From NCBI GenBank assembly GCA_964532285.1, contig CAZHHB010000005.1:1-60060 (forward strand): a DNA stretch of 60,060 nucleotides, written 5' to 3'. Below are positions 3,883 through 57,802 of this stretch, in pieces; the stretch's first letter is position 1; each line of letters starts with the position of its first letter. Position numbers and translations under genes: made by a program. The DNA is from an uncultured Candidatus Saccharibacteria bacterium (GTDB taxonomy: Bacteria; Patescibacteriota; Minisyncoccia; Phycocordibacterales; PALSA-1337). A model generated the notes under the pieces. The model did not search any database. It worked only from the letters and a program-made list of their open reading frames with translations, and was not told where the DNA came from.

Positions 3883-4048
3883 GTCCGGTAAATAAGTTCT
3901 CGAGACAGCCGAGGACATGTCTGAGCGCAGTAGAAATTGCTTGGTAAAAGGCGAATGTCGTTGGAATTATTCATAATTCCTGAGCCTTTTACCTAGCAAT
4001 TTCACGGAGCGAGTACCGCAGGCTGGCGAGAGGATTTATTTACCGGAC
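3883..4048. repeat. Nested palindrome element B: 114-nt core (3909-4022) inside the locus-specific IR gtccggtaaataa/ttatttaccggac
   Basis: The core is the reverse complement of 54283-54396 with a single mismatch. It has an internal 20-bp stem and an 8-bp stem. Confidence 0.9.
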
Positions 4049-5494
4049 TAGTTTCACGATCTCCTCGATCATACCCCTGAATCCGTGTGCTCCTAGAAAT
4101 ACAATGGCGTCGCCTTTTTTTGCCTGAGAAATCAGATATTTCACAAGGTCCGCGTCATCTTCAATGTATTTGACATTTGGATGAGTCTCGAAGATAATTG
4201 TCGCCAATTCAGCACCATCGATCGGCTGATTGGATTCGTTATCCGCCGTCTTCAATTTCGTCAGCCGTGGGATTATTACGGTATCGGCATCAGCAAAAGC
4301 ATTTTTATATTTGACCAGTGATTCTCTGCTACGACCCCCCATATTTGGTTCAAAGATAGCGATGATGTCACCAGTGTATGTTGATTTCAAAGTTTGTAAT
4401 ACCGCTGAAGCTTTCTCTGGAGAATGGGCGATATCATCAAATACCGTCACATCTCCATCTGACCGTTTCTCCAGGCGACGTTTTAGTCCCTTGAATGAGT
4501 TGATAGCAGCAATTATCTTGTCTGTGGCAACTCCCAACTCGCGTGCCATAGCGAAACACCCAGTGATATTTTCTGATTGATAAAGTCCAAGCATTGGAGA
4601 GTGAACTCTATATTTATTGCCATTATGAGATATGGTTAGCTCCAGACCATCTCTCGTTTGAACAGCATTTTCATAAGAATATTCTGGAGATATATTTCGA
4701 GATTCGAACTCAAGATCCGATCTTGGAAATCTGGCGCGTCCGTATTTGATGACCTTGCCTGCATATGAAGCCAGTGTCTCTTTGACACCTGGATTGTCTA
4801 TACACGCCAATACCAATCCCGTGGGCGATAACATCTCTAGAAGTTTTTTGAAAGCATTGAAATAATCTGATTCGGTGGGATATAAGTCAGCATGATCCCA
4901 CGAGACAGCCGTTAGGAGTAAATGCGTGGGTCTGTAATGAAAGAATTTGGCACGTGGTTCGGTCGGGGAGCTTTTGTATTCATCTCCTTCCAATACACTG
5001 AAATTTCCATTACCGATACGGGCCGAAGAGCCATGAGAAAGAGAAATACCACCGAACATATAAGTCGGATCTAGGAAGGCGTGATCCAGGATGTGAGACA
5101 AAAGGGCGGTGGAAGAAGTCTTGCCCCAAGTCCCAGTACATACGATAGAATTTTCCTTGATGAAGTATTTTCCCAATATCTCTGGATAGGAATAGCGGGG
5201 GATATTTTGTCCCTCGGCATACAGAGTTTCAGGATTTTTTGTGCCAGAAGCAGCACCGACGATCACAAGATCTGGTCTGTCATCGGCAACCATCTTGTCT
5301 GGATGCCAACCGGCATAAAAGTTTATGCCGTGTTTTTCCAATTCCGTGGAAACTGGTGGAAAGAATCCTTTGTCACTACCAGTCACAGTCACACCCTTTT
5401 CTTTGAAGGCAATAGCCACGGCGCTCATAGCTACACCACAAATACCTATTACATGTATACGCTTTGGTAAAGCCGATTCAGGTGAATTATTCAT
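4040..5494 (-). CDS. Mur ligase, MurC/Mpl type (UDP-MurNAc--L-Ala or tripeptide ligase)
   Basis: 484 aa. N-terminus RIHVIGICGVAMSAVA...GSDKGFFPPVSTELEKHGI resembles the Mpl/MurC N-domain. GTWGKTS P-loop. Confidence 0.8.
   Translation of the reverse strand: MNNSPESALPKRIHVIGICGVAMSAVAIAFKEKGVTVTGSDKGFFPPVSTELEKHGINFYAGWHPDKMVADDRPDLVIVGAASGTKNPETLYAEGQNIPRYSYPEILGKYFIKENSIVCTGTWGKTSSTALLSHILDHAFLDPTYMFGGISLSHGSSARIGNGNFSVLEGDEYKSSPTEPRAKFFHYRPTHLLLTAVSWDHADLYPTESDYFNAFKKLLEMLSPTGLVLACIDNPGVKETLASYAGKVIKYGRARFPRSDLEFESRNISPEYSYENAVQTRDGLELTISHNGNKYRVHSPMLGLYQSENITGCFAMARELGVATDKIIAAINSFKGLKRRLEKRSDGDVTVFDDIAHSPEKASAVLQTLKSTYTGDIIAIFEPNMGGRSRESLVKYKNAFADADTVIIPRLTKLKTADNESNQPIDGAELATIIFETHPNVKYIEDDADLVKYLISQAKKGDAIVFLGAHGFRGMIEEIVKLVR
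4711..4726. repeat. Short palindromic unit caagatccgatcttgg inside the Mur ligase CDS
   Basis: Read on the minus strand as ttc cca aga tcg gat ctt gag = FPRSDLE. Confidence 0.85.
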
Positions 5495-10319: not shown

Positions 10320-11516
10320 ATGATGCGATTCTGGAAAGAGTACGGAGCGACGCGAGTGATCGCGATTCTGGTGGTCATTTGTTTGATTATTTTGATCGGT
10401 GTTCTGGTGATATGGTTTTCTCCATATGCAAAGGTGGTATATCCGAATAGCCAGCAAGGGGCAGTTGCTGTCGGAGATACTTCTAGAGATATTGTGTATC
10501 ATCTTCCTACACCCAAACCGTTGAAGGCTGTGTATATGAGTAGTTGGGCGGCCGGTAATGATAAATTCAGGAAACATCTCTTCGATCTCGTAGATACTAC
10601 AGAGATAAATGCTGTGGTAATAGATATCAAAGACTACACTGGTAGGATTAGTTTCCGTGTGGAAGATTCATTTTTGAATGAAATTGGTTCTTCGGAAAAT
10701 CGTATCTCAGATATCAAAGATTTTATTTCGAAATTACATGAAAAGAAAGTGTATGTGATCGGACGCATATCTTGTTTCCAAGACTCATATCTAGTGAAGG
10801 TTCGTCCAGATTGGGCTGTGAAGTCACAACAGGGTGGAGTATGGGCTGATTACAAAGGAGTGAAATGGCTGGATGCTGGAGCAAAGCCTGTGTGGGATTA
10901 TTTGGTCGCTATTGGTAAACAATCTTACGCCTACGGGTTTGACGAATTAAACTTTGATTACATTCGCTATCCTTCTGATGGTGATATGACCGATGTTTTT
11001 TATTCTTGGGATGATGGGTTTACTAGGCAGGAGGTGATGAAATCGTTCTTTATGTATTTGAGAGAAAGTTTTGATGGTACGAATATTCCATTATCCATAG
11101 ATCTCTTCGGTCTGACTACCAGTGCTTCCGGCGATCTTGGTATTGGTCAGAGTCTCATAGACGCTCTGCCTTATTTTGATTATGTCTCTCCAATGGTATA
11201 TCCGTCACATTTTGCTAAGGGATTCCTCGGTTTTCCGAAGCCTGCAACACACCCGTATGAGGTTATTAAAAGCTCTATGGATAGTGCTATATCTAAAGCT
11301 AATATAGCTTCCTCTAGTCCAGAAAAAATTAGACCATGGTTGCAGGCCTTTGATCTGGGGGCTGTTTATACTCCAGCTATGGTGCGCGCGCAAATACAAG
11401 CTACCTATGATTCGGGGCTGGATAGTTGGATGTTGTGGAATGCGGCGAGTGTCTATGATAAAGAAGGATTGATTTCGAAAGAGGCTGTCCAAGGTCCGAC
11501 CTCGGACAAAATATAA
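10320..11516 (+). CDS. Putative glycoside hydrolase, TIM-barrel DUF4015/GHL-type, N-terminal membrane anchor
   Basis: 398 aa. TEINAVVIDIKDYTGRISF and FDELNFDYIRYPSDG resemble the putative glycosyl hydrolase domain family. Confidence 0.55.
   Translation: MMRFWKEYGATRVIAILVVICLIILIGVLVIWFSPYAKVVYPNSQQGAVAVGDTSRDIVYHLPTPKPLKAVYMSSWAAGNDKFRKHLFDLVDTTEINAVVIDIKDYTGRISFRVEDSFLNEIGSSENRISDIKDFISKLHEKKVYVIGRISCFQDSYLVKVRPDWAVKSQQGGVWADYKGVKWLDAGAKPVWDYLVAIGKQSYAYGFDELNFDYIRYPSDGDMTDVFYSWDDGFTRQEVMKSFFMYLRESFDGTNIPLSIDLFGLTTSASGDLGIGQSLIDALPYFDYVSPMVYPSHFAKGFLGFPKPATHPYEVIKSSMDSAISKANIASSSPEKIRPWLQAFDLGAVYTPAMVRAQIQATYDSGLDSWMLWNAASVYDKEGLISKEAVQGPTSDKI
11486..11509. repeat. Short palindromic unit (24-mer tgtccaaggtccgacctcggacaa), identical to 40552-40575
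   Basis: Encodes the last residues (QGPTSDK) of the 10320..11516 CDS. Confidence 0.9.
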
Positions 11517-15105: not shown

Positions 15106-16200
15106 ATGAATAAGTGTAATAAAATTTTAATTGCTACGGGCATATATCCTCCAGAAATAGGTGGACCGGCCACATATGCGGAGATGATGGCGCGAGAATT
15201 GCCTAAGCGGGGAATTGCGGTAGGCATCCTACCTTTTAGGGAGGTGCGTGGATACCCGAAAGTCTTTAGGCACATTATGTATTTCTTTAAGGTTATAAGA
15301 CTCTCGCGTGAGGCTGATATTATATTTACTCAAGATCCGGTAAGCACAGGTGTGCCAGTCATATTCGCTTCATGGTTCACTGGTAAAAAAGTCGTTATGC
15401 GTGTCGCTGGTGATTATGCTTGGGAACAGGCGCGACAAAGATTTGGCGTTGCTGACTCCATAGATGATTTCCAGGACAAAAAATATGGATTGAGGGTTGA
15501 ATTGTTCAGATGTCTGCAGAGATTTTCTGTCAAACACGCTGGTGTGGTTATTACCCCGAGTAATTATTTCAATAGACTTGTAAGTGGTTGGTTAAAAAAT
15601 AAAAAAGAGATAAAGACCATCTATAATGGTATAGAGTTAAGTGATGCTTTTGAGAAGGCTCCAAAATATACAGACAAAACCATTATCACAGCAGGACGAA
15701 TGGTTCCGTGGAAAGGATTTGATGTGCTTATAAAAATTTTAGGGAAGTTGCCGGATTGGAGGCTGATCATCGCTGGTGATGGGGCTGATAAGGAAAGATT
15801 GGTTGATTTGGCTAAGCAAGCTGGAGTGGAGAAAAGAGTTGAGTTTACGGGTAATATTCCTCGCACGGAATTATTCTCAAAGATATATCGTTCTCATATC
15901 TTTGCTCTGCTTACGACTTTTGAGAGCTTTTCATTCCAGACAGTTGAAGCGATGCATGTGGGTGTGCCTGTGATCGCTTCCAATATCGGTAATCTGTCTG
16001 AAATCATAGATGATGGTAAGAATGGTGTCTTGGTAAATCCTACAGATGAAGATGGTGTCCGCGCTTTGATTGAAAAGATTGGTAGGGAGAATGGATATGC
16101 TGAAGCTTTGTCGCGCGAAGCTATTTTCAAAGCCAAGGATTTCTCTATAGAGAAGACTTTGAATAGTCTGATTGATGTATTTAATGAATGTGTTAAATAA
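15106..16200 (+). CDS. Glycosyltransferase family 4
   Basis: ESFSFQTVEAMHVGVPVIASNIGNLSEIIDDGKNG. Confidence 0.8.
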   Translation: MNKCNKILIATGIYPPEIGGPATYAEMMARELPKRGIAVGILPFREVRGYPKVFRHIMYFFKVIRLSREADIIFTQDPVSTGVPVIFASWFTGKKVVMRVAGDYAWEQARQRFGVADSIDDFQDKKYGLRVELFRCLQRFSVKHAGVVITPSNYFNRLVSGWLKNKKEIKTIYNGIELSDAFEKAPKYTDKTIITAGRMVPWKGFDVLIKILGKLPDWRLIIAGDGADKERLVDLAKQAGVEKRVEFTGNIPRTELFSKIYRSHIFALLTTFESFSFQTVEAMHVGVPVIASNIGNLSEIIDDGKNGVLVNPTDEDGVRALIEKIGRENGYAEALSREAIFKAKDFSIEKTLNSLIDVFNECVK

Positions 16201-16201
16201 T

Positions 16202-17317
16202 ATGAAACTTATAATACTTTCAATTGATCATAATTTGTTGAACAGAGAAAGTGCAACTTCTCTGCGCATGTCACATTATGGTACATATGTTGGAGAAATA
16301 GATGTTATTTTAGTTGGAGCCTCCGGTGAGTCTTTGAACCTCAGTCAAAATGTGAGAGTTTATCCGGTTGCCGGTACCAATAAGGCATCTAGTTCATTCA
16401 AGGCTTTATCTTTGGCCAGACAGCTTGTGAAATCAGACACGGTTATAGTTGTCCAAGATCCATTTGAGATGGGATTGTGGGGTTTGGTTGTCTCGTGGAT
16501 CACCAAGTGTCCATTAAATGTTCAAATTCATATAGATTTCTTCAGCCCGTACTTCAGGAGACAGTCTGTCCGTCAGTATCTGCAATCAATGATAGCTCCG
16601 TTTGTTTTGCGTCGTGCTGATTCTGTAAGAGCTGTCTCTGGGAAGATTGCTGAATATTTGAAAGATGAATTGGGCGTCGATGCCAAGAAGATTACCATCG
16701 CTCCGGTATTTGTAGATTTGAATATTATTAAGAATAAATCAGTGACGATAGATCTGCACAGTAAATTTCCACAGTTTGATTGGATAATCTTGGTGGCCTG
16801 TCGTTATGTAAAACAAAAGAATATACCGTTGGCTATAGAAGCATTTGAAATATTCAAAAAGACTCACCCGAAAGCAGGTTTGGTGATTGCTGGTTCTGGG
16901 CCTGAAGAATCAACAATCAAGGAGATTGTGGTTGAAAAAGACCTTGAAGAATCGGTCAAGATCGGATCTTGGGCAGATGAATTCGCTTCTTGTATGAAAA
17001 CTTGCGATACATTCCTATTGTCCTCTGATTATGAAGGTTGGGGAATGACGGTCATAGAGGCGGCCAGTCTCGGCAAGCCAGTAATCATGACTGATGTCGG
17101 GTGTGCCAATGAGTTCTTGATACATGAGAAGGATGGATTGATCGTACCGACCCGTGACCCTGAAGCCTTGGCGGTGGCTATGTCCAAATATTATGACAAT
17201 CGTGCCTTTGCTAAAAATATGGGGCTGGCGGCAGAGCGCAGCGCTTCAACTTATATGACCATGGAAGAAAATGATATGCTCATGAAGAAGTCGTGGGAGT
17301 CAGCTGTGAGAATATAG
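16202..17317 (+). CDS. Glycosyltransferase family 4
   Basis: EGWGMTVIEAASLGKPVIMTDVGCANEF. Start taken at MKLIILS. Confidence 0.8.
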   Translation: MKLIILSIDHNLLNRESATSLRMSHYGTYVGEIDVILVGASGESLNLSQNVRVYPVAGTNKASSSFKALSLARQLVKSDTVIVVQDPFEMGLWGLVVSWITKCPLNVQIHIDFFSPYFRRQSVRQYLQSMIAPFVLRRADSVRAVSGKIAEYLKDELGVDAKKITIAPVFVDLNIIKNKSVTIDLHSKFPQFDWIILVACRYVKQKNIPLAIEAFEIFKKTHPKAGLVIAGSGPEESTIKEIVVEKDLEESVKIGSWADEFASCMKTCDTFLLSSDYEGWGMTVIEAASLGKPVIMTDVGCANEFLIHEKDGLIVPTRDPEALAVAMSKYYDNRAFAKNMGLAAERSASTYMTMEENDMLMKKSWESAVRI

Positions 17318-20571: not shown

Positions 20572-20640
20572 AAGTTCGGTGAATGTGTGTCCCCCTCGGA
20601 ACGGAACATGTTCCTCGGAAGACACACATTCACCGAACTT
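20572..20640. repeat. Perfect 20-bp inverted repeat around a 29-nt palindromic centre (nested palindrome G)
   Basis: aagttcggtgaatgtgtgtc (20572-20591) pairs with gacacacattcaccgaactt (20621-20640). The centre contains ggaacatgttcc and two cctcgg motifs. Confidence 0.9.
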
Positions 20641-20653
20641 AAATAAACATAAT

Positions 20654-21595
20654 ATGAAAATATCAATAATTTTACCCATATTCAATGAAGAAGAAAATAT
20701 CCCCATTCTCTATAAAGAGATAAAGGAAGTTTGTGCAAAAGAAAAAGTCGAGTACGAGATTATTGCGATCAACGATGCTTCTAAAGATGGGAGTTTGAAT
20801 GTCTTGAAGACAATTGCTTCCAACGATAAAAATTTCAAGGTTATAAATTTCCGATTTAATTCTGGTCAAACAGCGGCCATGTCTGCTGGAATAAAAGCCG
20901 CTACGGGAGAAATTATAATCCCCATGGATGCAGATTTGCAGAATGATCCGTCCGATATTCCCAAATTCTTATTCAAAATCGCTGAAGGTCATGATGTTGT
21001 TTCTGGTTGGAGGCGAAATCGCAAAGACAAGATGATTATGAGGAAGATACCATCAATGTGCGCAAATTGGCTTATTGGGAAGATAACAGGAGTTAAGGTT
21101 CACGATTATGGTTGTTCTATGAAGGCTTACAAACGCGAGCTTATTCAGGGAATTAGTCTATACGGAGAGATGCATCGTTTCATCCCCGCATATGCTTCGT
21201 GGCATGGTGGTGAGGTTACAGAGATTGTAGTCAACCACCGAGCTCGTATTCACGGTAAAACAAAGTATGGAATTTCTAGAACATTCAAAGTCCTCCTAGA
21301 TCTGATTGTTGTAAAATTCTTGTCAAAATATATGAATAAGCCGATGCATTTCTTTGGTGGGTTAGGATTTGTATCATTAGGTTTAGGTATATTGGCAGGT
21401 TTGTGGGCGGTTATACTGAAATTGGCCAACCTGAAACCTCTTGTCTCTACACCGCTACCGACCTTCTCGGCTTTATTGATAATCGTCGGTGTACAGTTAG
21501 CAGCTATGGGTGTGATCGCAGAGATGATTATGCGTCTATACTACGAGGCACAAGACAAGACGCCGTATAGGATAAAAGATACAATTAATGTATAG
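20654..21595 (+). CDS. GT2 polyprenyl-phosphate glycosyltransferase (DPM1/GtrB/ArnC-like)
   Basis: ISIILPIFNEEENI, DADLQNDP and two C-terminal TM helices. The ORF-track start at 20579 lies inside the palindrome and is rejected. Confidence 0.85.
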   Translation: MKISIILPIFNEEENIPILYKEIKEVCAKEKVEYEIIAINDASKDGSLNVLKTIASNDKNFKVINFRFNSGQTAAMSAGIKAATGEIIIPMDADLQNDPSDIPKFLFKIAEGHDVVSGWRRNRKDKMIMRKIPSMCANWLIGKITGVKVHDYGCSMKAYKRELIQGISLYGEMHRFIPAYASWHGGEVTEIVVNHRARIHGKTKYGISRTFKVLLDLIVVKFLSKYMNKPMHFFGGLGFVSLGLGILAGLWAVILKLANLKPLVSTPLPTFSALLIIVGVQLAAMGVIAEMIMRLYYEAQDKTPYRIKDTINV

Positions 21596-23511: not shown

Positions 23512-23562
23512 CAAGGTCCGACCTAGAGGTATATTGGCAAGTATGCCTAGATCCGATCTTGG
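23512..23562. repeat. Two short palindromic units (caaggtccgacctagagg; cctagatccgatcttgg) in the asnB-methyltransferase spacer
   Basis: Direct reading. Same family as the units at 23846-23883. Confidence 0.85.
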
Positions 23563-23578
23563 TATATAATCTCAAATC

Positions 23579-24436
23579 ATGGATATTAATACAAAAGACC
23601 TAAAGACTGCAGACGCATTCGCTACCTCTTGGAATAATCTGCCCGAAGGTTCTGTCTACACAAAAGATCAGTTTGAAGACTGGATGACTCCGCTTACCAG
23701 GGATGTTGTTGTTGGTAAGAGGGTCTTGGAATTGGGTTGTGGTAATGCCAGCCTCATGGTTCATATGCTCAATTGGAGCCCTTCTTATCTGGAGGGCGTT
23801 GATTTAGGTGATTCGGTACTTTCGGCGGAAAAGAATCTCGGTATACCAAGATCCGATCTTGGTATATCTAGATCGGATCTTGGCAAGAACTGGAAAGTAA
23901 CAAAGGGGGATTTGGTTGAATTCAAGAGTGATGGATTCGACCTAGTCTACTGTATCGGTGTACTTCATCATTTGAAGGACCCCAAGAAAGGTTTCGATTC
24001 GGTCGTCAGAAATACCAAATCAGGTGGCATGTTCCACTGCTGGGTTTATGCTCGTGAGGGCAATGGTTTAATTGTATATGTTGTGGATCCTATCAGAAAG
24101 GTTGTCTCAAGATTACCCTGGTGGTTCACAAAATATCTCGTAGCAACACCGTTGGTCATCCCATTTTTCTTATACGCGAAACTAATGGCGACCTTGCCGA
24201 AGTATGGGTTTTTGAAGAAACTACCACTTTATGAGTATTCCTTATGGATCTCAAAAAGAGAATTTGCGTTCTTCCGTCATGTAGCCTTCGATCAACTCGT
24301 CACTCCACAGACTGCTTATATTTCCAAGCAGACTATTGAAGGTTGGTTGGCTGGAGATTCAAGGATAAACAAGGGATTGAAGTATATAATTATGAGAAAT
24401 GGTAATTCGTGGAAGTTTGGGGGGAGGGTTTTGTAG
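23579..24436 (+). CDS. Class I SAM-dependent methyltransferase
   Basis: VLELGCGNA, VYCIGVLHHL. TATAAT at 23565-23570 lies 8 nt upstream of the ATG. Confidence 0.7.
   Translation: MDINTKDLKTADAFATSWNNLPEGSVYTKDQFEDWMTPLTRDVVVGKRVLELGCGNASLMVHMLNWSPSYLEGVDLGDSVLSAEKNLGIPRSDLGISRSDLGKNWKVTKGDLVEFKSDGFDLVYCIGVLHHLKDPKKGFDSVVRNTKSGGMFHCWVYAREGNGLIVYVVDPIRKVVSRLPWWFTKYLVATPLVIPFFLYAKLMATLPKYGFLKKLPLYEYSLWISKREFAFFRHVAFDQLVTPQTAYISKQTIEGWLAGDSRINKGLKYIIMRNGNSWKFGGRVL
23846..23883. repeat. Tandem pair of short palindromic units inside the methyltransferase CDS
   Basis: ccaagatccgatcttgg-tatat-ctagatcggatcttgg, translated as GIPRSDLGISRSDLGK. Confidence 0.9.
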
Positions 24437-31429: not shown

Positions 31430-32284
31430 ATGAAAAATATCCTGAAGAAAACCCTGCCACCTTTTATTTGGAATAATGCCAGAGATACTTATTATGGCTT
31501 TTCTCATATCCTATGTAGGATTGGTCCGCAGACGAAAACTCGCAATTATTGTGGATTCAGATTGTATTACAATTGCGGCAATTCCATAATTGACAGACTG
31601 AAGTTTGAACCCGTCTTCGAAAAAGAGATGTGTGAGATGATCGTCTTTGATTTGAATAAAAGTAAGACACCAAAGATGTTAGATATCGGTGCGAATATCG
31701 GTTTTATCAGCCTTTATGTTGTTTCAGAAGTTTCTGCAATCAAGATTTATGCTTTTGAGCCGGGGTTGAAACAGGCGGGGTATTTTAAGAAAACTATAGA
31801 AGCCAATGCCTTGAGCGAGCGTGTGGTCTTGAATACTTTTGCCCTCTCAGATTCAAATGGCACCCAGACCTTCTATAGTCATCCTAGACGCGATATGTCG
31901 AAAGATGGTCTAAAAGATACAGGAAGGGGAGAAAGGACGGTTGTAACAGAGGTAAAGACCATGACGTTGGATTCTTGGTGGAAAGGGGTGGGTATGCCGA
32001 ATATTGATGTTGTGAAGATTGATACAGAGGGGGCGGAGTTATTGATCTTGCGTTGTGCAAAGGAATTCCTGGCGAAAGTGAAACCGATTATTTATCTGGA
32101 GATAGCGCCGAGTAATCTGAAAGCATACCCGTACAAGGTCTCAGATATTTTGAAATATTTAGGCGAGGCTGGTTACAGATTGGTAACGTTGTCAGGTGAA
32201 TTGGTTACAGCAGATAATTTAAATGAATTGTTGGTTGTTAATGAGACTTTCCGTGCCATTTCAGATGGTCAGGTCGCAAAGTGA
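31430..32284 (+). CDS. FkbM-family methyltransferase
   Basis: MLDIGANIGFISLY, AFEP, VVKIDTEGAE. Confidence 0.75.
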   Translation: MKNILKKTLPPFIWNNARDTYYGFSHILCRIGPQTKTRNYCGFRLYYNCGNSIIDRLKFEPVFEKEMCEMIVFDLNKSKTPKMLDIGANIGFISLYVVSEVSAIKIYAFEPGLKQAGYFKKTIEANALSERVVLNTFALSDSNGTQTFYSHPRRDMSKDGLKDTGRGERTVVTEVKTMTLDSWWKGVGMPNIDVVKIDTEGAELLILRCAKEFLAKVKPIIYLEIAPSNLKAYPYKVSDILKYLGEAGYRLVTLSGELVTADNLNELLVVNETFRAISDGQVAK

Positions 32285-32432
32285 TTTTTATGAGACCTGC
32301 GGGACTCGCTATCGTTAAATTGCAAGGTTTTTGTGCTCATGGGCATGTAAGGTTCCGAGCACAAAAACCTAGCAATTTATACTCTGCTCAGACAGGTCCT
32401 CGGTCTCATAAAAATCACCTTGCGACCTGACC
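32267..32432. repeat. Nested palindrome element C: core 32296-32403 inside a 31-bp IR (1 mismatch) that includes the last 5 codons and stop of both flanking genes
   Basis: ggtcaggtcgcaaagtgatttttatgagacc pairs with ggtctcataaaaatcaccttgcgacctgacc. The core termini cctgcgg.actcgct / ctgctcagacaggtcctcgg are shared with elements B and D. Confidence 0.9.
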
Positions 32433-37084: not shown

Positions 37085-37099
37085 ATGTACATTATAGTA

Positions 37100-37141
37100 C
37101 CACAAGGTCCGACCTAGGAGTTCCTAGGTCGGACCTTGTGG
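37100..37141. repeat. 42-nt near-perfect palindrome made of two short palindromic units
   Basis: ccacaaggtccgacctagga-gt-tcctaggtcggaccttgtgg (20-bp arms). It lies between the divergent GDPD and IMPase-family promoters. Confidence 0.9.
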
Positions 37142-37143
37142 TA

Positions 37144-39757: not shown

Positions 39758-40462
39758 ATGAATGAAGACATAAAGCCTGGACAACAGGTCGTAGGTGAAA
39801 ATCCGGTTCTAAAAAAGATAATGACGATCCGGGCTGGTGGTGAGAGGATGTTTGAGTCTGGCGTCATGAAACTTTTCGAGGGTTTCCCCGAAAGTCTCAA
39901 GTATCGGGCGAATGTTTCGCTCAAGATGAAAATATTCCTCTCGCCCATCATCTGGGAAGTTTACAAGACAGCGTACCGTCTGGGATTGGTTCCTTTGACG
40001 GCGGAACTGCACTTCCCGTTGCACATGACGCTTCTCGAGGCAAATTGCGACCAGAGCGAGTGGGCGGAGAAAACCGCGATGTGGCATGAATTGGAGAAAG
40101 TGTCCTTTGTTTGTTTGCCTCAAACCGATGCGGATTTGCGTTTCTCGCACCTGGTGATCAATAATTCCAACGATGTCCTGCTCATGTCCGATCAGATCCC
40201 GTCTTGCATAGTCAATTTCCGCAAGAAGATTGCGGAAGTATATGAACGCCATGGATTGCAGGTTCTACCTTTGGATGACAGCATGCATATGAGCATTCAG
40301 CGGTTGCCGGAGGCGAGCAACAAGGAAGTCGGCCAGCTATTCAATCTGAAAGAATATTACCAGGGGATCAGGGCTTTGGAGAAGATTCAGCCTCAGATCG
40401 TCAGGGTAATTGGATTATATTGTGGCCCTGCCATGAGCTTACTTACCCAAAAGCCGAGCTAA
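39758..40462 (+). CDS. Putative 2H phosphoesterase (LigT/cyclic phosphodiesterase-like)
   Basis: Two H-x-[ST]-x motifs, HFPLHMTLLE and DSMHMSIQRL, about 100 aa apart. Confidence 0.4.
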   Translation: MNEDIKPGQQVVGENPVLKKIMTIRAGGERMFESGVMKLFEGFPESLKYRANVSLKMKIFLSPIIWEVYKTAYRLGLVPLTAELHFPLHMTLLEANCDQSEWAEKTAMWHELEKVSFVCLPQTDADLRFSHLVINNSNDVLLMSDQIPSCIVNFRKKIAEVYERHGLQVLPLDDSMHMSIQRLPEASNKEVGQLFNLKEYYQGIRALEKIQPQIVRVIGLYCGPAMSLLTQKPS

Positions 40463-40491: not shown

Positions 40492-40552
40492 CCCCCGAGA
40501 TCACTTGCCCTACGAAGCTTCAAGCGTAGTAGGGGATCTCGGGGGATTTTTT
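40492..40552 (+). terminator. Rho-independent terminator (compound hairpin plus T-run)
   Basis: cccccgagatc...gatctcggggg followed by attttttg. Confidence 0.6.
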
Positions 40553-40575
40553 GTCCAAGGTCCGACCTCGGACAA
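40552..40575. repeat. Short palindromic unit, 24-mer identical to 11486-11509
   Basis: tgtccaaggtccgacctcggacaa, intergenic between convergent genes. Confidence 0.9.
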
Positions 40576-40577
40576 GT

Positions 40578-40994
40578 TTACTCAAGTAGATACTTGTCCC
40601 CCTTAACCGAAGGTCTCTTGATGGCTACCAGAGCCCCATCTTCCAGACATTCAAAATATTCCATGACCGTACCCGGTGTGAAATGTATAATATCTCCAGG
40701 TTCTATAATCTCACCATTCATCATATGTTTGCCTGATACTACTACCGTTATCTCATCTGCTACTTTGTGCAAGTGTCCAGGATCAACCTCACCTTTCTTA
40801 TAAAAACGAACCATAACTTCAAAGTCTTTGCTTTTGAGTATGGCAGGATCAAAGTCACCTACTATCCAACCACGGGTGAAATTTTCCAAACGCTGTTTTT
40901 CCAAACGCTTCTTAATTGGCGACTTTGTTGAGGAATTTTTCTCTCCGAGATTATTCTTCACCGCTTTTTGATTATTTTTGATTATTTTAGGCAT
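40578..40994 (-). CDS. Cupin-domain protein with a basic N-terminal tail
   Basis: GHLHKVADEITVVVSGKHMMNGEIIEPGDIIHF has the cupin two-motif layout. Confidence 0.5.
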   Translation of the reverse strand: MPKIIKNNQKAVKNNLGEKNSSTKSPIKKRLEKQRLENFTRGWIVGDFDPAILKSKDFEVMVRFYKKGEVDPGHLHKVADEITVVVSGKHMMNGEIIEPGDIIHFTPGTVMEYFECLEDGALVAIKRPSVKGDKYLLE

Positions 40995-48242: not shown

Positions 48243-48316
48243 CCAAATGATGGCGACGGCTGTACTCATAAAATTTAGACATTTTATTTGGAGCTCACAC
48301 CCGTCGCCATCATTGG
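48243..48316. repeat. ~16-bp inverted repeat with an inner 7-bp hairpin (nested palindrome H)
   Basis: ccaaatgatggcgacgg ... ccgtcgccatcattgg, with inner ataaaat/attttat. It lies upstream of murB. Confidence 0.8.
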
Positions 48317-48356
48317 GCGCAAATTGAGCGTGAACTTAGGAGATAATTTTACTTAC

Positions 48357-49361
48357 ATGAATATCCAAGAAAACATCACGCTTGCTCAATACACTACATT
48401 CAAGATTGGTGGACCAGCCAAGTTTTTCTGTATATGTAAGAGCGAAGGTGATCTTGTAGAAATTGTGAATTTCGCAAAAGGGAAGAAGTTGCCAATTTTT
48501 ATATTGGGTGGTGGATCCAATATCCTAATCTCTGATAAAGGTTATAAGGGATTAGTGATAAAGATGGAAATTGGGGGCACGGACTTGTCGGTAGTATCCG
48601 CTGGCGCCGGCGTAATATGGGATGATTTTGTTGCGGAAATAGTTGCAAATGGTCTGTATGGTCTGGAAAATCTCTCCGCTATACCTGGAACAGTCGGTGC
48701 GGCACCGGTGCAGAATATCGGTGCTTATGGGATGGATGTCTCGCGTGCGGTACAGTCGGTGCGAGCTCTGGATACAAAGTCTATGAAATTTATTGAATTA
48801 TCCAATGCCGACTGTAAATTTGATTATCGGGATAGTGTCTTTAAGCATGAGAAGGGTCGTTATGTTATAACGCGAGTTGACTTCAAACTTTCCAAGAAGG
48901 GTAAGGTGAATATTGAGTACAAGGATTTGAAGGAGTATTTCCAAGATCCGATCTCGGTACCAAGATCGGATCTAGTTGGAGTTCGCGAAGCTGTGGTCAA
49001 TATTCGCGCAGCGAAATTGCCGGATTGGAAAAAGTGGGGGACAGCGGGATCGTATTTCAAGAATCCGATCATCTCAAAGAAAAAGTTTGAAAGCTTGAAG
49101 AAAAAGTATTCCGAGTTGCCAGGATTCCCAGAATCCAATGGAGATATCAAGATTTCTCTGGGTTGGGTTCTGGACAAAGTATGTAATTTCAAGGGTCTGA
49201 GCATGGGCAGGGTGAAAATATATGAAAAACAGGCTTTGGTTATCGTAGCTTCGGCTGGAGCAACAGCAGAAGAAGTCATGAAATTGGCGCAAGAATTGAT
49301 GCGCGAAGTCAAGAAAAAAACAGGTATTATGATAGAAGGTGAGGTGGAATGGGTGAATTAA
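48357..49361 (+). CDS. murB: UDP-N-acetylenolpyruvoylglucosamine reductase
   Basis: LAQYTTFKIGGPAKFF, LGGGSNIL, GSYFKNP. Start taken at MNIQEN. Confidence 0.85.
   Translation: MNIQENITLAQYTTFKIGGPAKFFCICKSEGDLVEIVNFAKGKKLPIFILGGGSNILISDKGYKGLVIKMEIGGTDLSVVSAGAGVIWDDFVAEIVANGLYGLENLSAIPGTVGAAPVQNIGAYGMDVSRAVQSVRALDTKSMKFIELSNADCKFDYRDSVFKHEKGRYVITRVDFKLSKKGKVNIEYKDLKEYFQDPISVPRSDLVGVREAVVNIRAAKLPDWKKWGTAGSYFKNPIISKKKFESLKKKYSELPGFPESNGDIKISLGWVLDKVCNFKGLSMGRVKIYEKQALVIVASAGATAEEVMKLAQELMREVKKKTGIMIEGEVEWVN
48941..48975. repeat. Inverted pair of short palindromic units inside murB
   Basis: ccaagatccgatctcgg-ta-ccaagatcggatctag, translated as QDPISVPRSDLV. Confidence 0.9.
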
Positions 49362-49388
49362 TACGCCAAATGTGATAAAGTGCCATTT

Positions 49389-51959
49389 ATGGCATTTTTC
49401 AGCAAAATATTCAGTTCATCCAAGACGAGCAATCCAAAGAAGTTTGAGCCGATTGTGGTGGAGATAAATAAACTGGAAAACAAAATCCAGGCTCTTTCTG
49501 ATGCAGAACTTCGAGCGAAGACAGCAGAGTTTAAGAGTAAACTGAGTACTTCTACCTCTAGGTCGGACCTAGAGGTGTTGATGAATGAAATCCTCCCTGA
49601 AGCTTTCGCTGTAGTTCGCGAAGCCTCTCGCCGTACTCTCGGTCAGCGTCATTTTGATGTTCAACTTATCGGGGGGATGATCTTGAATTCAGGATCAATC
49701 GCCGAGATGAGGACTGGTGAAGGTAAAACTTTGGTGGCAACACTGCCAGCTTATTTGAATGCACTTACCGGTAATGGTGTACATATTGTCACGGTCAACG
49801 ATTATCTATCACGACGCGATGCTGTGTGGATGGGACAGATCTACGATTTTCTCGGACTTACAGTCGGAGTGATCAACCATGAATCATCTTTTATATATGA
49901 TGCGGAACATAAAAGTAAAGAAACAGTAGAAAGTGATGGTGAAGACAAACTAGACAAAGAACGCGATGATCTGGGTGCCTTCAAAGTCGTTCATGAATTC
50001 TTAAGACCAGTTACTAGACACGAAGCCTACATGGCCGATATCACTTACGGCACGAACAATGAATTCGGTTTTGATTACCTCCGAGACAATCTAGAGTATA
50101 GTCCAGACCGTCTGCGTCAGAGGGAATTCAACTATGCCATAGTAGACGAGATAGACTCTATTTTGATCGATGAAGCGCGTACGCCACTCATCATCTCCGC
50201 GCCGACTCGTGACGCCGAAAGTACTTACAAACAGTTTGCTGCGCTCGTAGGTTCATTCAAAGAAATAGAAGACTATATAGTAGAAGAAAAACACAAAAGT
50301 ATATCTCTGACGCAGGATGGTATAACTAAAGCTGAAAAGGCTCTGGGCATAGAGAATATCTATACAGACAAGGGCATCAAGTCGGTTCATCATCTCGAGA
50401 CGGCCATCAAAGCCCGAGCCTTGTATCACAAAGACAAAGAATATGTAGTAAAAGAAAATCAGATTGTAATAGTAGATGAATTCACTGGGAGATTGCAGCC
50501 TGGCCGTAGATGGTCAGATGGTCTGCATCAAGCCATTGAAGCCAAAGAAGGTGTGAGTATTCAGCAAGAATCTAGAACTTATGCTTCCATTACATTCCAA
50601 AACTTCTTCAGAATGTACCCGAAGCTTTCCGGTATGACTGGTACGGCCGTGACTTCATCTGAGGAATTCCACAAAGTCTATGGCCTGGAAGTTTATAGTG
50701 TACCGACCAATGTTCCAACGGTGAGGAAAGATCAAAATGATCAGATATTCAGAACAGAGGTTGGTAAATTCAAAGCTATTGCAAGAAAGGTCAAAGAATT
50801 GCACAGCAAAGGTCAGCCGGTTCTGATCGGCACGGTCTCTATTGAGAGGAATGAAGTCTTGTCACAATTCTTGAAAGCAGAAGGTATCCCGCATGAGATA
50901 TTAAATGCAAAAAATCACGAGAGAGAAGGAGAGATCATCGCTCAGGCTGGTAGGGTTGGTGCGGTTACTATCGCCACCAACATGGCGGGTCGCGGTGTGG
51001 ATATCAAACTTGGCGGCAATCCAAATACTCCAGAATCACACGATGAAGTCAATAAAGCTGGGGGACTTTTTGTCCTCGGCACTGAACGCCATGAAGCTCG
51101 TCGTATAGACGACCAACTACGAGGTCGTTCTGGCCGTCAGGGTGATCCGGGTGAGACACAGTTCTTTGTCTCTCTAGAAGATACTTTGATGCGTGTTTTT
51201 GCTTCGGATACTTTGAAGTCAATGATGGTTAGGTTGAATGTGCCAGAAGATGAAGCTATAGAGCATAAGTTTATTTCCAAAGCTTTGGAATCTGCACAAG
51301 AGAAGATTGAAGGTTTCAACTTCGATTCCCGCAAACATGTTTTGGAATTTGATGATGTCATAAATCATCAGCGCGGTAGTATTTACGGTAGACGCAGAAA
51401 ACTTTTGCTTGGGACGGTAGAGGATGTGGAAGAGGAGTTCAGGATTATCATAGAAGCTGCCGCTTTTGAAACCGATATATTAAAGGTCGTAGAAAATAAA
51501 ATAAATGAATTTGGTCGTGAGTCATTCCTCAATGCTGTTAGAGTGATTCTCCTGCAGACAATTGATATGTATTGGGTGGAACATCTGGAGGTTATGGATT
51601 ATACGCGTTCCAGCGTCAATCTGCGCGCTTACGGTCAACGAGATCCTTTGGTTGAATACAAAAAGGAGGGGCTGAGGCTTTTCAAAGAGATGCAGGGTGT
51701 TATGAGTGCGCAGGTGATCAAAATCATTCCACATATAGTCCCGATGGTAAACGGGGAACCTGTTTCCAAGAAGATTGCAGGTGACGCTGCTGATTTGAGG
51801 GAAGTTCATGAAAATGCTCAGATTATCGGTGCCGGTGATGGTTCCGCGAATAATTCAAAGTCAGTCAGTGATTCCAAGTCCGTTGGTCGCAACGATCCAT
51901 GTTGGTGTGGTAGTGGGAAGAAGTATAAGAAGTGTCATGGGCAGTCAAAGATCGTGTAA
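49389..51959 (+). CDS. secA: Preprotein translocase ATPase SecA
   Basis: AEMRTGEGKTLVATLPAYLNAL, IVDEIDSILIDEARTPLIIS, C-terminal CWCGSGKKYKKCHG. Confidence 0.95.
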   Translation: MAFFSKIFSSSKTSNPKKFEPIVVEINKLENKIQALSDAELRAKTAEFKSKLSTSTSRSDLEVLMNEILPEAFAVVREASRRTLGQRHFDVQLIGGMILNSGSIAEMRTGEGKTLVATLPAYLNALTGNGVHIVTVNDYLSRRDAVWMGQIYDFLGLTVGVINHESSFIYDAEHKSKETVESDGEDKLDKERDDLGAFKVVHEFLRPVTRHEAYMADITYGTNNEFGFDYLRDNLEYSPDRLRQREFNYAIVDEIDSILIDEARTPLIISAPTRDAESTYKQFAALVGSFKEIEDYIVEEKHKSISLTQDGITKAEKALGIENIYTDKGIKSVHHLETAIKARALYHKDKEYVVKENQIVIVDEFTGRLQPGRRWSDGLHQAIEAKEGVSIQQESRTYASITFQNFFRMYPKLSGMTGTAVTSSEEFHKVYGLEVYSVPTNVPTVRKDQNDQIFRTEVGKFKAIARKVKELHSKGQPVLIGTVSIERNEVLSQFLKAEGIPHEILNAKNHEREGEIIAQAGRVGAVTIATNMAGRGVDIKLGGNPNTPESHDEVNKAGGLFVLGTERHEARRIDDQLRGRSGRQGDPGETQFFVSLEDTLMRVFASDTLKSMMVRLNVPEDEAIEHKFISKALESAQEKIEGFNFDSRKHVLEFDDVINHQRGSIYGRRRKLLLGTVEDVEEEFRIIIEAAAFETDILKVVENKINEFGRESFLNAVRVILLQTIDMYWVEHLEVMDYTRSSVNLRAYGQRDPLVEYKKEGLRLFKEMQGVMSAQVIKIIPHIVPMVNGEPVSKKIAGDAADLREVHENAQIIGAGDGSANNSKSVSDSKSVGRNDPCWCGSGKKYKKCHGQSKIV
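49554..49576. repeat. 23-nt perfect palindrome (short palindromic unit) inside secA
   Basis: acctctaggtc-g-gacctagaggt, translated as TSRSDLEV. Confidence 0.9.
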
Positions 51960-52113
51960 CCCCTCACATTGTTTCCTCACTCACTCGCACTCCACTCATC
52001 ACATATCGGAATTTTCACAAATGATGTCTTCCAAGGCTTCAGCCATCATTTGGAAAATTCAACGATATGTTCTTCGCGGATTATGCTCGCTCGTGGATAA
52101 ACAATGTGAGGGG
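51960..52113. repeat. Nested palindrome element F: 15-bp outer IR and 17-bp inner hairpin
   Basis: Outer IR cccctcacattgttt / aaacaatgtgagggg; inner hairpin gaattttcacaaatgatg / catcatttggaaaattc. The 5' motif cctcactcactcgcactcc resembles cctgcggtactcgctcc of element D. Confidence 0.85.
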
Positions 52114-52163
52114 GTACACGATCTCAGATTCACAAAACTCTGTAGATGTGGTAGAGTAAACTT

Positions 52164-54253: not shown

Positions 54254-54424
54254 AGAGCCCAACAACTAACTCGCAAAGCTCACCTGCGGTACTCGCTCCG
54301 TGAAATTGCTAGGTAAAAGGCTCAGGAATTATGAATAATTCCAACGACATTCGCCTTTTACCAAGCAATTTCTACTGCGCTCAAACATGTCCTCGGTGAG
54401 CCTTGCGATTAGTTGTTGGGCTCT
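54254..54424. repeat. Nested palindrome element D: 114-nt core (54283-54396) inside a ~31-bp locus-specific IR
   Basis: The core matches the reverse complement of 3909-4022 at 113/114 positions. Arms are agagcccaacaactaactcgcaaagctcacc / ggtgagccttgcgattagttgttgggctct. Confidence 0.9.
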
Positions 54425-55928: not shown

Positions 55929-56171
55929 TCAGAGATGCTGGACTATAAGCTTCTTGACCTGTTTTCTGGTAGGCCTTTTGCCTTTGTTGGTTTCTATCTC
56001 CAGGAGAAGTTTCTCAATGTCAGCAACCTTATAGACCCTATAGTTATTGATCGGATGTCTAGAAGCAGGGAATTTGCCACTATTATCCCAATTACGTAAG
56101 GTAAGAGGAGTGACGCCTAGTATGTTGGCGGCTTGTTGTACAGTTACTAATTTTCTTTCTATATTTTCCAT
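55929..56171 (-). CDS. Excisionase/MerR-type HTH DNA-binding protein
   Basis: 80 aa. LVTVQQAANILGVTPLTLRNWDNSGKFPA. Confidence 0.7.
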   Translation of the reverse strand: MENIERKLVTVQQAANILGVTPLTLRNWDNSGKFPASRHPINNYRVYKVADIEKLLLEIETNKGKRPTRKQVKKLIVQHL

Positions 56172-56533: not shown

Positions 56534-57802
56534 ATGAAAGATATCTTTATTTTTGAAGGTAAAAAATACATCTCGGCTAGGCGAGCATCCGAAATCTCGG
56601 ACTATTCTTCTGATTACATTGGCCAACTTTGCCGCTCTGGAAAGCTTGATTGTCGCATGGAGGGAAGATCGTGGTTTGTAACAGAAGAGTCTCTCAATCT
56701 ACACAAGACCAATGTTTTGGAAGATGAAGTTTACAGGAACCGTATCGAAAATCTTCGTGGGAAGAAACCGAAAGACACAACAGAAGAGAAAGTTAAAATT
56801 TCCGAAAATAAAAAATCCGAGTCTGAATCAGTAGAACAGACTACTCCATTCATCTCTACAAAACGGGCATCCGAAATCTCGAACTATTCTCCAGATTACA
56901 TCGGTCAACTTTGTCGTTCCGAAAAGCTTGATTGTCGTATGGTGGGACGGTCATGGTTTGTAACAGAAGAATCTCTCAATCTATACAAGGTCAATGTTTT
57001 GCACGATGAAGTTTACAGGAACCGCATCGAAAATCTTCGCGGGAAAAAATCAAAAGATATAACAGGAGAGGAAATCGGCGCTCAGGTTCCCGATCCCCAA
57101 CCTTCTCTCTCGGAACAATTCATCTCATCTGAAATGAGATCTTTCTTGGCAAGCAAGATGACATATGAACACGCTGACGATCCTCTGCTTCCAGCATTGA
57201 ATAAATATGCAGACAAGACAACAGAGGGGGCTTTGTCTGATTCGACAGAGATTGTGGGGGGGGCGATGATTCCGATTAAAACTCCCTACACCAATCTTGC
57301 TCGCTCCATCATTTTGAAAAGAGCATTGAGACCCGCTGTGATGATAGCCATGTTCCTGGTTGTCTTCGGCGGAACGACGATTGTATTCAATAAGATCAAA
57401 AATAGTAGCAATATATCGGTGGCCAAAATCTCCGAACTCAATGCGACTATTTTAGACGCTTTCAAGTCAACCAGTTCTTTTTTGCAGAGAGAGTATGATG
57501 GCTTGCTGGCTCTATTCAAATACAGAAGTGAGTTGGCTTTGAACACAACCGATGATGGCGCAGAAATATCGGACGTCGAAACCCCTACAAATAATCCTTC
57601 TCAAGGAATAGCGATAGTGCCTTCGACGGGACTTGCCGCGGATGATGAGGCGGCAAAACAGAAGATTCAAGATTCTTTCTCTGATCAGATAGAAGTTCAT
57701 CCTGACAATAGCGGTACATCAGGTATCATCACCCCTGTCTTCCGCACCACGAAGGGTAATGATTTCGTATACGTTCTCGTTCCGATCAATGAGCAAAAAT
57801 AA
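56534..57802 (+). CDS. Membrane-anchored protein with two tandem excisionase-like HTH modules
   Basis: 422 aa. The module ISxxRASEISxYSxDYIGQLCRSxKLDCRMxGRSWFVTEESLNL occurs twice, followed by a TM helix (AVMIAMFLVVFGGTTIVF) and a C-terminal extracytoplasmic part. Confidence 0.6.
   Translation: MKDIFIFEGKKYISARRASEISDYSSDYIGQLCRSGKLDCRMEGRSWFVTEESLNLHKTNVLEDEVYRNRIENLRGKKPKDTTEEKVKISENKKSESESVEQTTPFISTKRASEISNYSPDYIGQLCRSEKLDCRMVGRSWFVTEESLNLYKVNVLHDEVYRNRIENLRGKKSKDITGEEIGAQVPDPQPSLSEQFISSEMRSFLASKMTYEHADDPLLPALNKYADKTTEGALSDSTEIVGGAMIPIKTPYTNLARSIILKRALRPAVMIAMFLVVFGGTTIVFNKIKNSSNISVAKISELNATILDAFKSTSSFLQREYDGLLALFKYRSELALNTTDDGAEISDVETPTNNPSQGIAIVPSTGLAADDEAAKQKIQDSFSDQIEVHPDNSGTSGIITPVFRTTKGNDFVYVLVPINEQK
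56569..57070 (+). repeat. Intragenic tandem duplication: two ~220-bp units offset by 282 bp (94 codons)
   Basis: 56569-56788 and 56851-57070 align base for base with scattered substitutions. Confidence 0.9.

Follow-up and report, generated by a model that had tools for sequence, protein, structure and literature searches.

How does a perfect palindrome come to lie, in frame, within a gene encoding SecA? The question is raised by a 60,060-nt stretch of DNA from an uncultured Candidatus Saccharibacteria bacterium (positions 1 to 60,060 of the forward strand of contig CAZHHB010000005.1, assembly GCA_964532285.1; hereafter, the window), which has a G+C content of about 42%, contains mainly cell-envelope and glycosylation genes and carries the 23-nt palindrome ACCTCTAGGTCGGACCTAGAGGT in secA. 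Our preferred reading, to which we assign a probability of about 0.5, is that this palindrome belongs to a lineage-restricted, structure-constrained family of short hairpins of Paceibacteria-type Patescibacteria, whose closest known kind is that of the REP (repetitive extragenic palindrome) and REPIN elements. The palindrome and its host gene are as follows.

49554..49576, no strand assigned: secA palindrome with the G-type core AGGTCGGACCT and the stem ACCTCT/AGAGGT, encoding TSRSDLEV in frame
49380..51959, + strand: secA host gene, an 859-aa open reading frame (ORF) with a called product of 856 aa and the ATG at 49389

The palindrome is odd, with 11-nt arms around a central G, and not a single match was obtained among 100 dinucleotide-preserving shuffles. 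Its predicted RNA hairpin has a folding energy of -16.4 kcal/mol (z = -3.1). All SecA Pfam domains are present in the host gene product, which matches solved SecA structures, and both sequence and translation agree with a preliminary description of the locus, according to which a perfect 23-nt palindrome lies in frame in secA and reads TSRSDLEV.

The secA palindrome is not a solitary element. Its core, AGRTCSGAYCT, occurs 13 times in the window, compared with 0.10 occurrences expected from dinucleotide-preserving shuffles (~130-fold enrichment), and the 17-mer consensus with ≤2 mismatches gave 23 strand-matches versus 0.13 expected. The 13 cores fall into nine loci, four of which are doublets (4713; 11492; 16959; 23514+23549; 23849+23870; 37105+37126; 40558; 48944+48963; 49560); the over-represented repeat family claimed previously thus stands, with a frequency far above expectation, while the number of loci given for it, eight, has to be raised to nine. 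Among the 76 odd palindromes in the window with arms of ≥5 nt, 15 are centred on TCSGA, and 13 of these 15 are family members. Versus these 13 perfect cores, only two one-mismatch variants, corresponding to chance level, were found in 69 kb, that is, in the window together with the 8.8 kb upstream of it, where no family copy was present. Some copies share more than the core: an identical 24-mer, A·C mismatch included, is present at 11486 and 40552, and the 27-mers at 23541 and 23841 are 93% identical. The core is stop-free in all six frames and, as had been noted before, reads R-S-D-L in the right frame; five of the eight coding cores use this reading, a bias that is suggestive only (P about 0.09).

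A chance palindrome or a sequencing or assembly artefact might be suspected from the A-type core (e.g., 16959-16969), which contains AGATCGGA/TCCGATCT, an 8-mer identical to the ligation end of the Illumina TruSeq adapters, a match that we judged coincidental. However, similarity to the adapter is absent from the G-type variant, to which the secA copy belongs, no further adapter-like sequence follows the A-type core, the copies preserve reading frames inside conserved genes, and shuffles yield an expectation of only 0-0.1. Furthermore, the window DNA was 100% identical in ENA and Logan assemblies from several samples (at least four) made with two assemblers, including the methyltransferase with two copies in four, and the family was also detected in JGI, NCBI and Hainich data sets. 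Since the identical sequence was recovered in independent assemblies, the palindromes are not assembly artefacts, and we regard chance or artefact as effectively refuted. All same-species contigs were 100% identical, so no polymorphic or empty palindrome site existed among them.

The type of constraint acting on the family was assessed in an alignment of 25 distinct copies from three lineages, in which the relatives' copies, found by a 21-mer pattern, are biased to one stem subfamily. Oriented with the C centre, nine core positions were invariant (AG.TCCGA.CT). Positions ±3 were A-T in 17 copies and G-C in eight, with no hybrid among the 25, for which independence gives about 6e-7 (1.3e-4 for the window alone), and position ±7 was C-G in 23 copies, A-U in one and G-C in one, and never unpaired. 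The covariation score was 0.33 versus 0.15 after shuffling, and the proportion of paired cells was 76.7% versus 65% with the 3′ letters shuffled and ≤44% with slid partners; in neither test did any of 500 shuffles reach the observed value. The outer stems are copy-specific and complementary, e.g., ACCTCT/AGAGGT in secA, TATACC/GGTATA in the methyltransferase gene, TGTCC/GGACA (twice), and AAA/TTT and ACG/CGT in a relative. The length is 15-25 nt for single units and 30-46 nt for doublets. Of the four doublets, three are inverted (23849/23870, 37105/37126 and 48944/48963), with a C-centre core followed by a G-centre core at a spacing of 19-21 nt, and these fold as single long hairpins of 30-46 nt. 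All copies fold stably, with z values from -3 to -10.8. An A·C mismatch appears on the + strand in three copies, at 11492 and 48944, where this is the mRNA sense strand, and at 40558, between convergent genes; their G·U-compatible version is on the - strand. From the strict symmetry of the core together with the covariation of the outer stems, it follows that the conserved object is a hairpin with a fixed apex and not only a sequence.

According to the hairpin-family reading, what is conserved is a stem-loop with the invariant apex AG-R-TCSGA-Y-CT, in which the R:Y pair covaries, and a copy-specific, self-complementary outer stem, and a trans-acting factor would recognise this hairpin in single-stranded DNA or RNA. 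The copies would have been made by templated copying and not by independent origin, to which the identical 24-mers at two unrelated loci point. Candidate copying agents are a RAYT-like (REP-associated tyrosine transposase-like) Y1 transposase or template switching/short-patch conversion. Survival inside genes would be possible because the core is stop-free and most often encodes the hydrophilic R-S-D-L, and because the copies lie in variable loops, linkers or tails.

The distribution of the family was followed in the 80 best secA loci of a genome collection, which stem from Patescibacteria metagenome-assembled genomes (MAGs) labelled Paceibacterota, Saccharibacteria or Patescibacteria group and of which the closest encode SecA proteins 72-78% identical to that of the window. 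In a collection of 5.8 billion proteins, the window SecA was a singleton, with the next match at ≤80% identity; the methyltransferase and the GT4 glycosyltransferase are singletons too (next homologues at ≤76% and ≤62% identity, respectively). The core was present in only one of the 80 loci, L008 (a Paceibacterota MAG, Ga0172379 organism, SecA 72% identical), which has ATACCGAGATCCGATCTCGGTAT as well as a second copy (L008:9971), whose centre precedes the ATG of secA by 25 nt. When metagenomes were scanned with TACCRAGATCSGATCTYGGTA, eight loci were found: one is 100% identical to L008, four others originate in the same JGI sample, have repeats in common with L008 and probably belong to the same genome, and two represent a 50%-G+C organism from Hainich groundwater. 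In 20 other Paceibacteria-like loci, 315 kb in total, we found a single core. None of the L008 copies (upstream of secA, and between obg-like and gatB-like genes) has a counterpart in the window, nor do the window copies have one in L008, within the few syntenic kb compared. The family is hence present in at least two lineages besides the window genome, at non-orthologous sites. One relative's copy (L086:2367) lies 83 nt into a predicted ComEC-like ORF (L086:2289-3926), possibly just upstream of the true start. A viral origin was also considered and rejected; the 17-mer had single occurrences in 10 IMG/VR contigs that are unrelated and mostly high-GC, no more than chance would give. The searchable literature yielded no account of repeats of this kind in Patescibacteria.

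For secA itself, the preliminary description had noted that the segment between the TAEF and PEAF motifs exceeds that of E. coli SecA by about 7 residues, which would fit an in-frame insertion of ~21-24 nt. Alignments to PDB structures confirm the 7 extra residues; that they stem from the palindrome is not supported. Among the 120 closest SecA homologues, the segment measures 21-76 aa, with a mode of 28-34 aa, and the canonical 21-22 aa are a minority. In a neighbour-joining tree based on 830 well-aligned columns, the window SecA groups with two homologues (P0005 and P0011) whose segment is 36 aa long, compared with 29 aa here, and in two relatives with a segment of about equal length (L004, 29 aa; L002, 28 aa) it is encoded by non-palindromic DNA. 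Given this clade-wide length variation, the longer neighbours and the non-palindromic relatives of equal length, the extra SecA length is a property of the clade. The secA copy may have entered a short ancestral sequence by insertion, or it may have overwritten a loop of 28-36 aa that was already there, and both routes are compatible with the sequence comparisons. In an AlphaFold model with a modest mean predicted local distance difference test (pLDDT) score of 64, but values of 79-88 around the palindrome residues, TSRSDLEV spans the loop 53-57 and the first turn of the helix 58-84 in NBD1 (the N-terminal motor domain), a predicted location that agrees with the tolerant site expected previously. 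The copy thus sits in a hypervariable helix-loop-helix of NBD1, where it is probably neutral for the protein.

Several other observations concern this segment. Many of the TAEF..PEAF inserts in the homologues (P0002-P0120) are of low complexity, e.g., KSETNSKSEIQNSKK and PKPYPLNSKPYTLNP. The idea that the long inserts of relatives are palindromic elements at the same site was rejected, as those of L092 and L094 are neither notably palindromic nor repeated in their loci. In L093 (L093:10001-12790), ~42 nt of the insert recur ~600 nt downstream; this is the sole insert that recurs elsewhere, and it does so within its own secA, which speaks for a hypervariable loop and not for a shared hairpin hotspot.

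The remaining copies in the window are listed below.

4711..4725, host ORF 4040-5494 on the - strand: MurC-like ligase copy, 15-nt palindrome CAAGATCCGATCTTG, reading FPRSDLEF
11486..11508, host ORF 10320-11516: DUF4015 copy, 23-nt near-palindrome TGTCCAAGGTCCGACCTCGGACA, in the last 6 codons
16957..16971, host ORF 16172-17317: GT4 glycosyltransferase copy, 15-nt palindrome CAAGATCGGATCTTG
23512..23567, no strand assigned: spacer (67 nt) between asnB and the methyltransferase gene, with two cores, 23514 (G-type) and 23549 (A-type)
23842..23883, host ORF 23579-24436: methyltransferase doublet, consisting of the 25-nt perfect palindrome TATACCAAGATCCGATCTTGGTATA and a second, inverted core at a spacing of 21 nt, reading IPRSDLGISRSDLG
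37098..37143, divergent spacer between the genes for GDPD (- strand) and inositol-monophosphatase (+ strand): 46-nt perfect palindrome with 22-nt arms and a 2-nt centre
40552..40574, between the convergent gene ends of 39821-40462 (+ strand) and 40578-40994 (- strand): second copy of TGTCCAAGGTCCGACCTCGGACA
48941..48976, host gene murB 48288-49361: inverted doublet, spacing 19 nt around GGTACC, reading QDPISVPRSDLV

The tolerance of in-frame palindromes in housekeeping genes that had been proposed from the secA copy extends to murB, the murC-like ligase gene, the GT4 gene and the methyltransferase gene. How these copies relate to protein length differs among the genes. The methyltransferase doublet is a clean insertion of 10 aa that is absent from all 119 homologues compared, the closest of which (76% identity) reads NLGSV----------HFKNW; for at least this family member, the lineage-specific insertion that had been suggested is therefore real. 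It is not flanked by a direct duplication. The region 23835-23890 can also be read as 2.5 tandem 21-nt units (ATCTYGGTATAYCWAGATCSG) encoding the heptad LGIPRSD-LGISRSD-LGK, and the first of these units begins in the ancestral ...AATCTCGG, which hints at microhomology at the junction. The MurC-like ligase has a variable loop with an insert of about 13 aa that is specific to the window and contains the palindrome, and the DUF4015 copy is located in a non-conserved C-terminal tail. MurB, on the other hand, differs by ≤1-2 aa in length from 10 orthologues, and its doublet overlies aligned residues; at the matching codons, CCAAG/CCGAG (Pro-Ser/Thr) and GAT are already present in these orthologues. 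The GT4 copy encodes the conserved V-K-I-G-S-W without any indel, and one orthologue has the same peptide with four synonymous differences. In relatives, a copy reading IPRSDLG in an RsmE-like gene adds no length compared with solved homologues, and two copies in a 6-phosphogluconolactonase (6PGL)-like gene are associated with a change of 0-2 aa, likewise relative to solved homologues. Judged from these sequence alignments, both outcomes appear among the coding copies, namely added residues and replaced resident codons. The copies without length change in MurB, GT4, RsmE-like and 6PGL-like genes imply that simple insertion is not the general mode.

These zero-net-length copies over homologous positions are what one would expect from a signature motif that builds up in place, similar to HIP1 or an uptake sequence, where near-matches are converted or are fixed by selection or drive, for instance by preferential uptake and recombination via the competence machinery. 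Such a motif would arise in genes without length change and would favour tolerant positions and frames. The VKIGSW peptide of GT4, reached via synonymous codons, and the pre-existing CCAAG/CCGAG and GAT in MurB orthologues point in this direction, as do the perfection of all cores, with mismatched variants at chance level only, and the presence of the motif in genera whose SecA proteins are only 72% identical. Moreover, com genes are conserved across the candidate phyla radiation (CPR) and Saccharibacteria have been shown to undergo natural transformation (PMC10633639), and HIP1 is likewise 15-300-fold over-represented within and between ORFs (PMC5861425). However, uptake sequences are asymmetric, whereas symmetry is strict and stems covary here, which a sequence-reading receptor would not impose; copying is indicated by 24-27-mers that recur identically at loci far apart; at two loci, 10-13 aa have really been inserted; and the sites in the window and in L008 are not orthologous, unlike those of HIP1. 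Taken alone, the GT4 match could be due to chance (P about 0.02-0.1, our own estimate). A motif arising in place is hard to reconcile with such strict symmetry, with stems that differ from copy to copy and with identical 24-27-mers, and we consider it possible but improbable.

Both behaviours could be reconciled if templated copying into near-matching sites were followed by a template-switch correction of the flanks, as template switching would turn one arm into the other's complement with the length unchanged. In a further reading, the hairpins would spread by overwriting and not by insertion: near-matches would receive a copy of the 11-nt apical hairpin or serve as sites of its nucleation, and the flanks would be rewritten as their own reverse complement, which would yield perfect palindromes with locus-specific stems in conserved enzymes at unchanged protein length. 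In a bolder variant, naturally competent Patescibacteria would use the motif as a signature for self-recognition or uptake. We regard this proposal as doubtful.

The copies in spacers raise another possibility. Although eight of the 13 window cores lie inside ORFs, this is an under-representation compared with 88% coding sequence (P = 0.015), and in the L008 organism eight of 10 copies are intergenic. Intergenic copies are repeatedly centred 23-26 nt upstream of an ATG, abutting a -10-like TAnnnT and leaving very short or no leaders. Such promoter-proximal copies precede the methyltransferase gene (core 23549, centred 25 nt upstream of the ATG, beside TATATAAT) and the GDPD gene (37105-37126) in the window, as well as secA (L008:9971), gyrA (L083:3516) and pnp (L084:9470) in relatives. 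The copy at the GDPD gene consists of two inverted G-type cores and is extremely stable (-45 kcal/mol, z = -10.8). Core 23514 directly adjoins the asnB stop codon, and core 40558 lies between convergent genes; core 11492 is assigned to the same group of gene-end copies. The spacing to the ATG, the placement after a stop codon or between convergent genes and the stable folding of all copies would suit a cis-acting regulatory hairpin or operator, that is, a promoter dyad bound by a regulator, or else an RNA stem-loop with a part in transcript stabilisation, termination or processing, with the intragenic copies as secondary or internal regulatory sites. However, the eight cores in ORFs include doublets in the middle of enzyme domains, and the A·C mismatch falls on the mRNA sense strand for 11492 and 48944. 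The outer-stem covariation also argues against a dimeric protein that reads the sequence. There is no match to an Rfam family, and scans of the whole window with Rfam at the gathering threshold and for tRNA/tmRNA detected no RNA genes. A role as classical terminator was rejected, as no T-run or U-tract follows the hairpins. Regulation as the reason for the family is therefore unlikely in our view, while the promoter-proximal copies may have a regulatory role, perhaps as a secondary co-option.

Among known systems, the preliminary description had pointed to Rickettsia palindromic elements (RPEs). The likeness lies in palindromic repeats that form a lineage-specific family and are located in frame in housekeeping genes, where their peptides occupy surface or variable segments, and the parallel holds as far as in-frame tolerance in essential genes is concerned. 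Membership does not: RPE-1 measures about 100-150 bp, and RPE-4/6 are CGTC-tagged REP-like units (PMC3733652, plus established knowledge), whereas the family described here has units of 15-25 nt, resides in another phylum and has no tag. Elements of the RPE-1 type are evident as insertions that lengthen the protein by 30-50 residues; in the present family, the unit comprises 5-8 codons and insertion is shown for two of about eight genes. Miniature inverted-repeat transposable elements (MITEs, e.g., Correia/NEMIS) are likewise non-autonomous, dispersed and bounded by inverted repeats, but have 70-300 bp, terminal inverted repeats and target-site duplications, while the hairpins are far shorter and show no duplication.

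The closest match is with REPs and REPINs, with which the family shares short, dispersed, multi-copy stem-loops, compensatory changes in the stems, inverted dimers that fold into a longer hairpin, enrichment in spacers and occasional in-frame intragenic units; for other phyla, REP units and dimers that lie within genes and code for 20-30 aa are on record (PMC3733652). In Patescibacteria, no report of REPs was found in the searchable literature. Several points weigh against our preferred reading as a REP-like family. The core hairpin is shorter (15-25 nt), and there is no conserved unpaired GTAG or CGTC tag in the flanks of the 25 copies, because of which the family is not a member of REP/REPIN in the strict sense. 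No transposase domain, and specifically no RAYT, was seen in the 69 kb examined. Most window copies are intragenic, unlike classical REPs, and those in the MurB, GT4, RsmE-like and 6PGL-like genes replace resident codons and add no length, while simple cut-or-copy insertion predicts otherwise. Decaying selfish copies should also have left more one-mismatch cores than the chance level observed, and the subfamily bias of the relatives' sample has to be kept in mind. The absence of length change and of decayed copies fits motifs of the HIP1 or uptake type, established in place, better.

HIP1 (GCGATCGC) of cyanobacteria resembles the family as a hyper-abundant short perfect palindrome located in and between ORFs, often realised through codon choice without indels, and the A-type core contains GATC. 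HIP1 is, however, an 8-mer without stem covariation or variable stems, and its sites are conserved between genomes. As the G-type core lacks GATC, a link to a methylase is unlikely. The DNA uptake sequences and uptake signal sequences (DUS/USS) of Neisseria and Pasteurellaceae share with the family a sharp core of 10-12 nt, inverted pairs between genes, tolerant coding positions and frames, the presence of competence genes in the host group and genus dialects (CCAAG.. here versus TACCGAG.. in relatives); they differ in being asymmetric and in lacking a pairing constraint.

The window contains further repeats. A family different from the short palindromes is formed by MITE-like units, which are 150-180 nt long, have terminal inverted repeats of 26-31 nt and occupy spacers at four positions.

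2482-2633: MITE-like unit
3883-4048: MITE-like unit, the inner part of which has a 99% identical, inverted copy at 54283-54396
32267-32432: MITE-like unit
51949-52124: MITE-like unit that begins in the last secA codons

At the last of these, two public contigs end and overlap, which suggests assembly breakage; in the coordinates of the window, public contigs end at about 52.1 kb and at about 60.1 kb. A G+C-rich hairpin of 123 nt with 30-nt arms (93% complementary) at 13318-13440 lies in a VirD4/TraG-like coupling-protein ORF (12008-13888) and encodes a Pro/Ala/Ser-rich linker that has a similar length in two orthologues, i.e., without net insertion. An inverted repeat with 31-nt arms (87% complementary) and a 7-nt loop at 20572-20640 extends across the start of a GT2 glycosyltransferase ORF (20579-21595). 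Finally, a tandem direct repeat of 226 nt, with 84% identity and a spacing of 282, is located at 56566-57073 within a 422-aa HTH_17 ORF (56534-57802); together with the neighbouring 80-aa MerR/excisionase-like gene (55929-56171) and a large unannotated ORF, this region may be what is left of an integrated element.

The genomes of Patescibacteria are tiny and streamlined, and their spacers are short. The hairpin family described here occurs across genera and in frame in secA, murB, a murC-like ligase gene and genes for other conserved enzymes, which indicates that selfish or structure-selected DNA can colonise even streamlined genomes via protein loops. There are practical consequences as well, as the palindromes and the longer hairpin units appear to break metagenome assemblies, with public contigs ending at one such unit just after secA, and peptides of the PRSDLG type can mislead alignments and annotation. 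The copies without length change suggest a templated overwrite, which, if true, would be a source of rapid, localised change in protein sequence. Should the reading as overwriting or as an uptake signature prove true, it would represent a mode of propagation or a function that is new for Patescibacteria.

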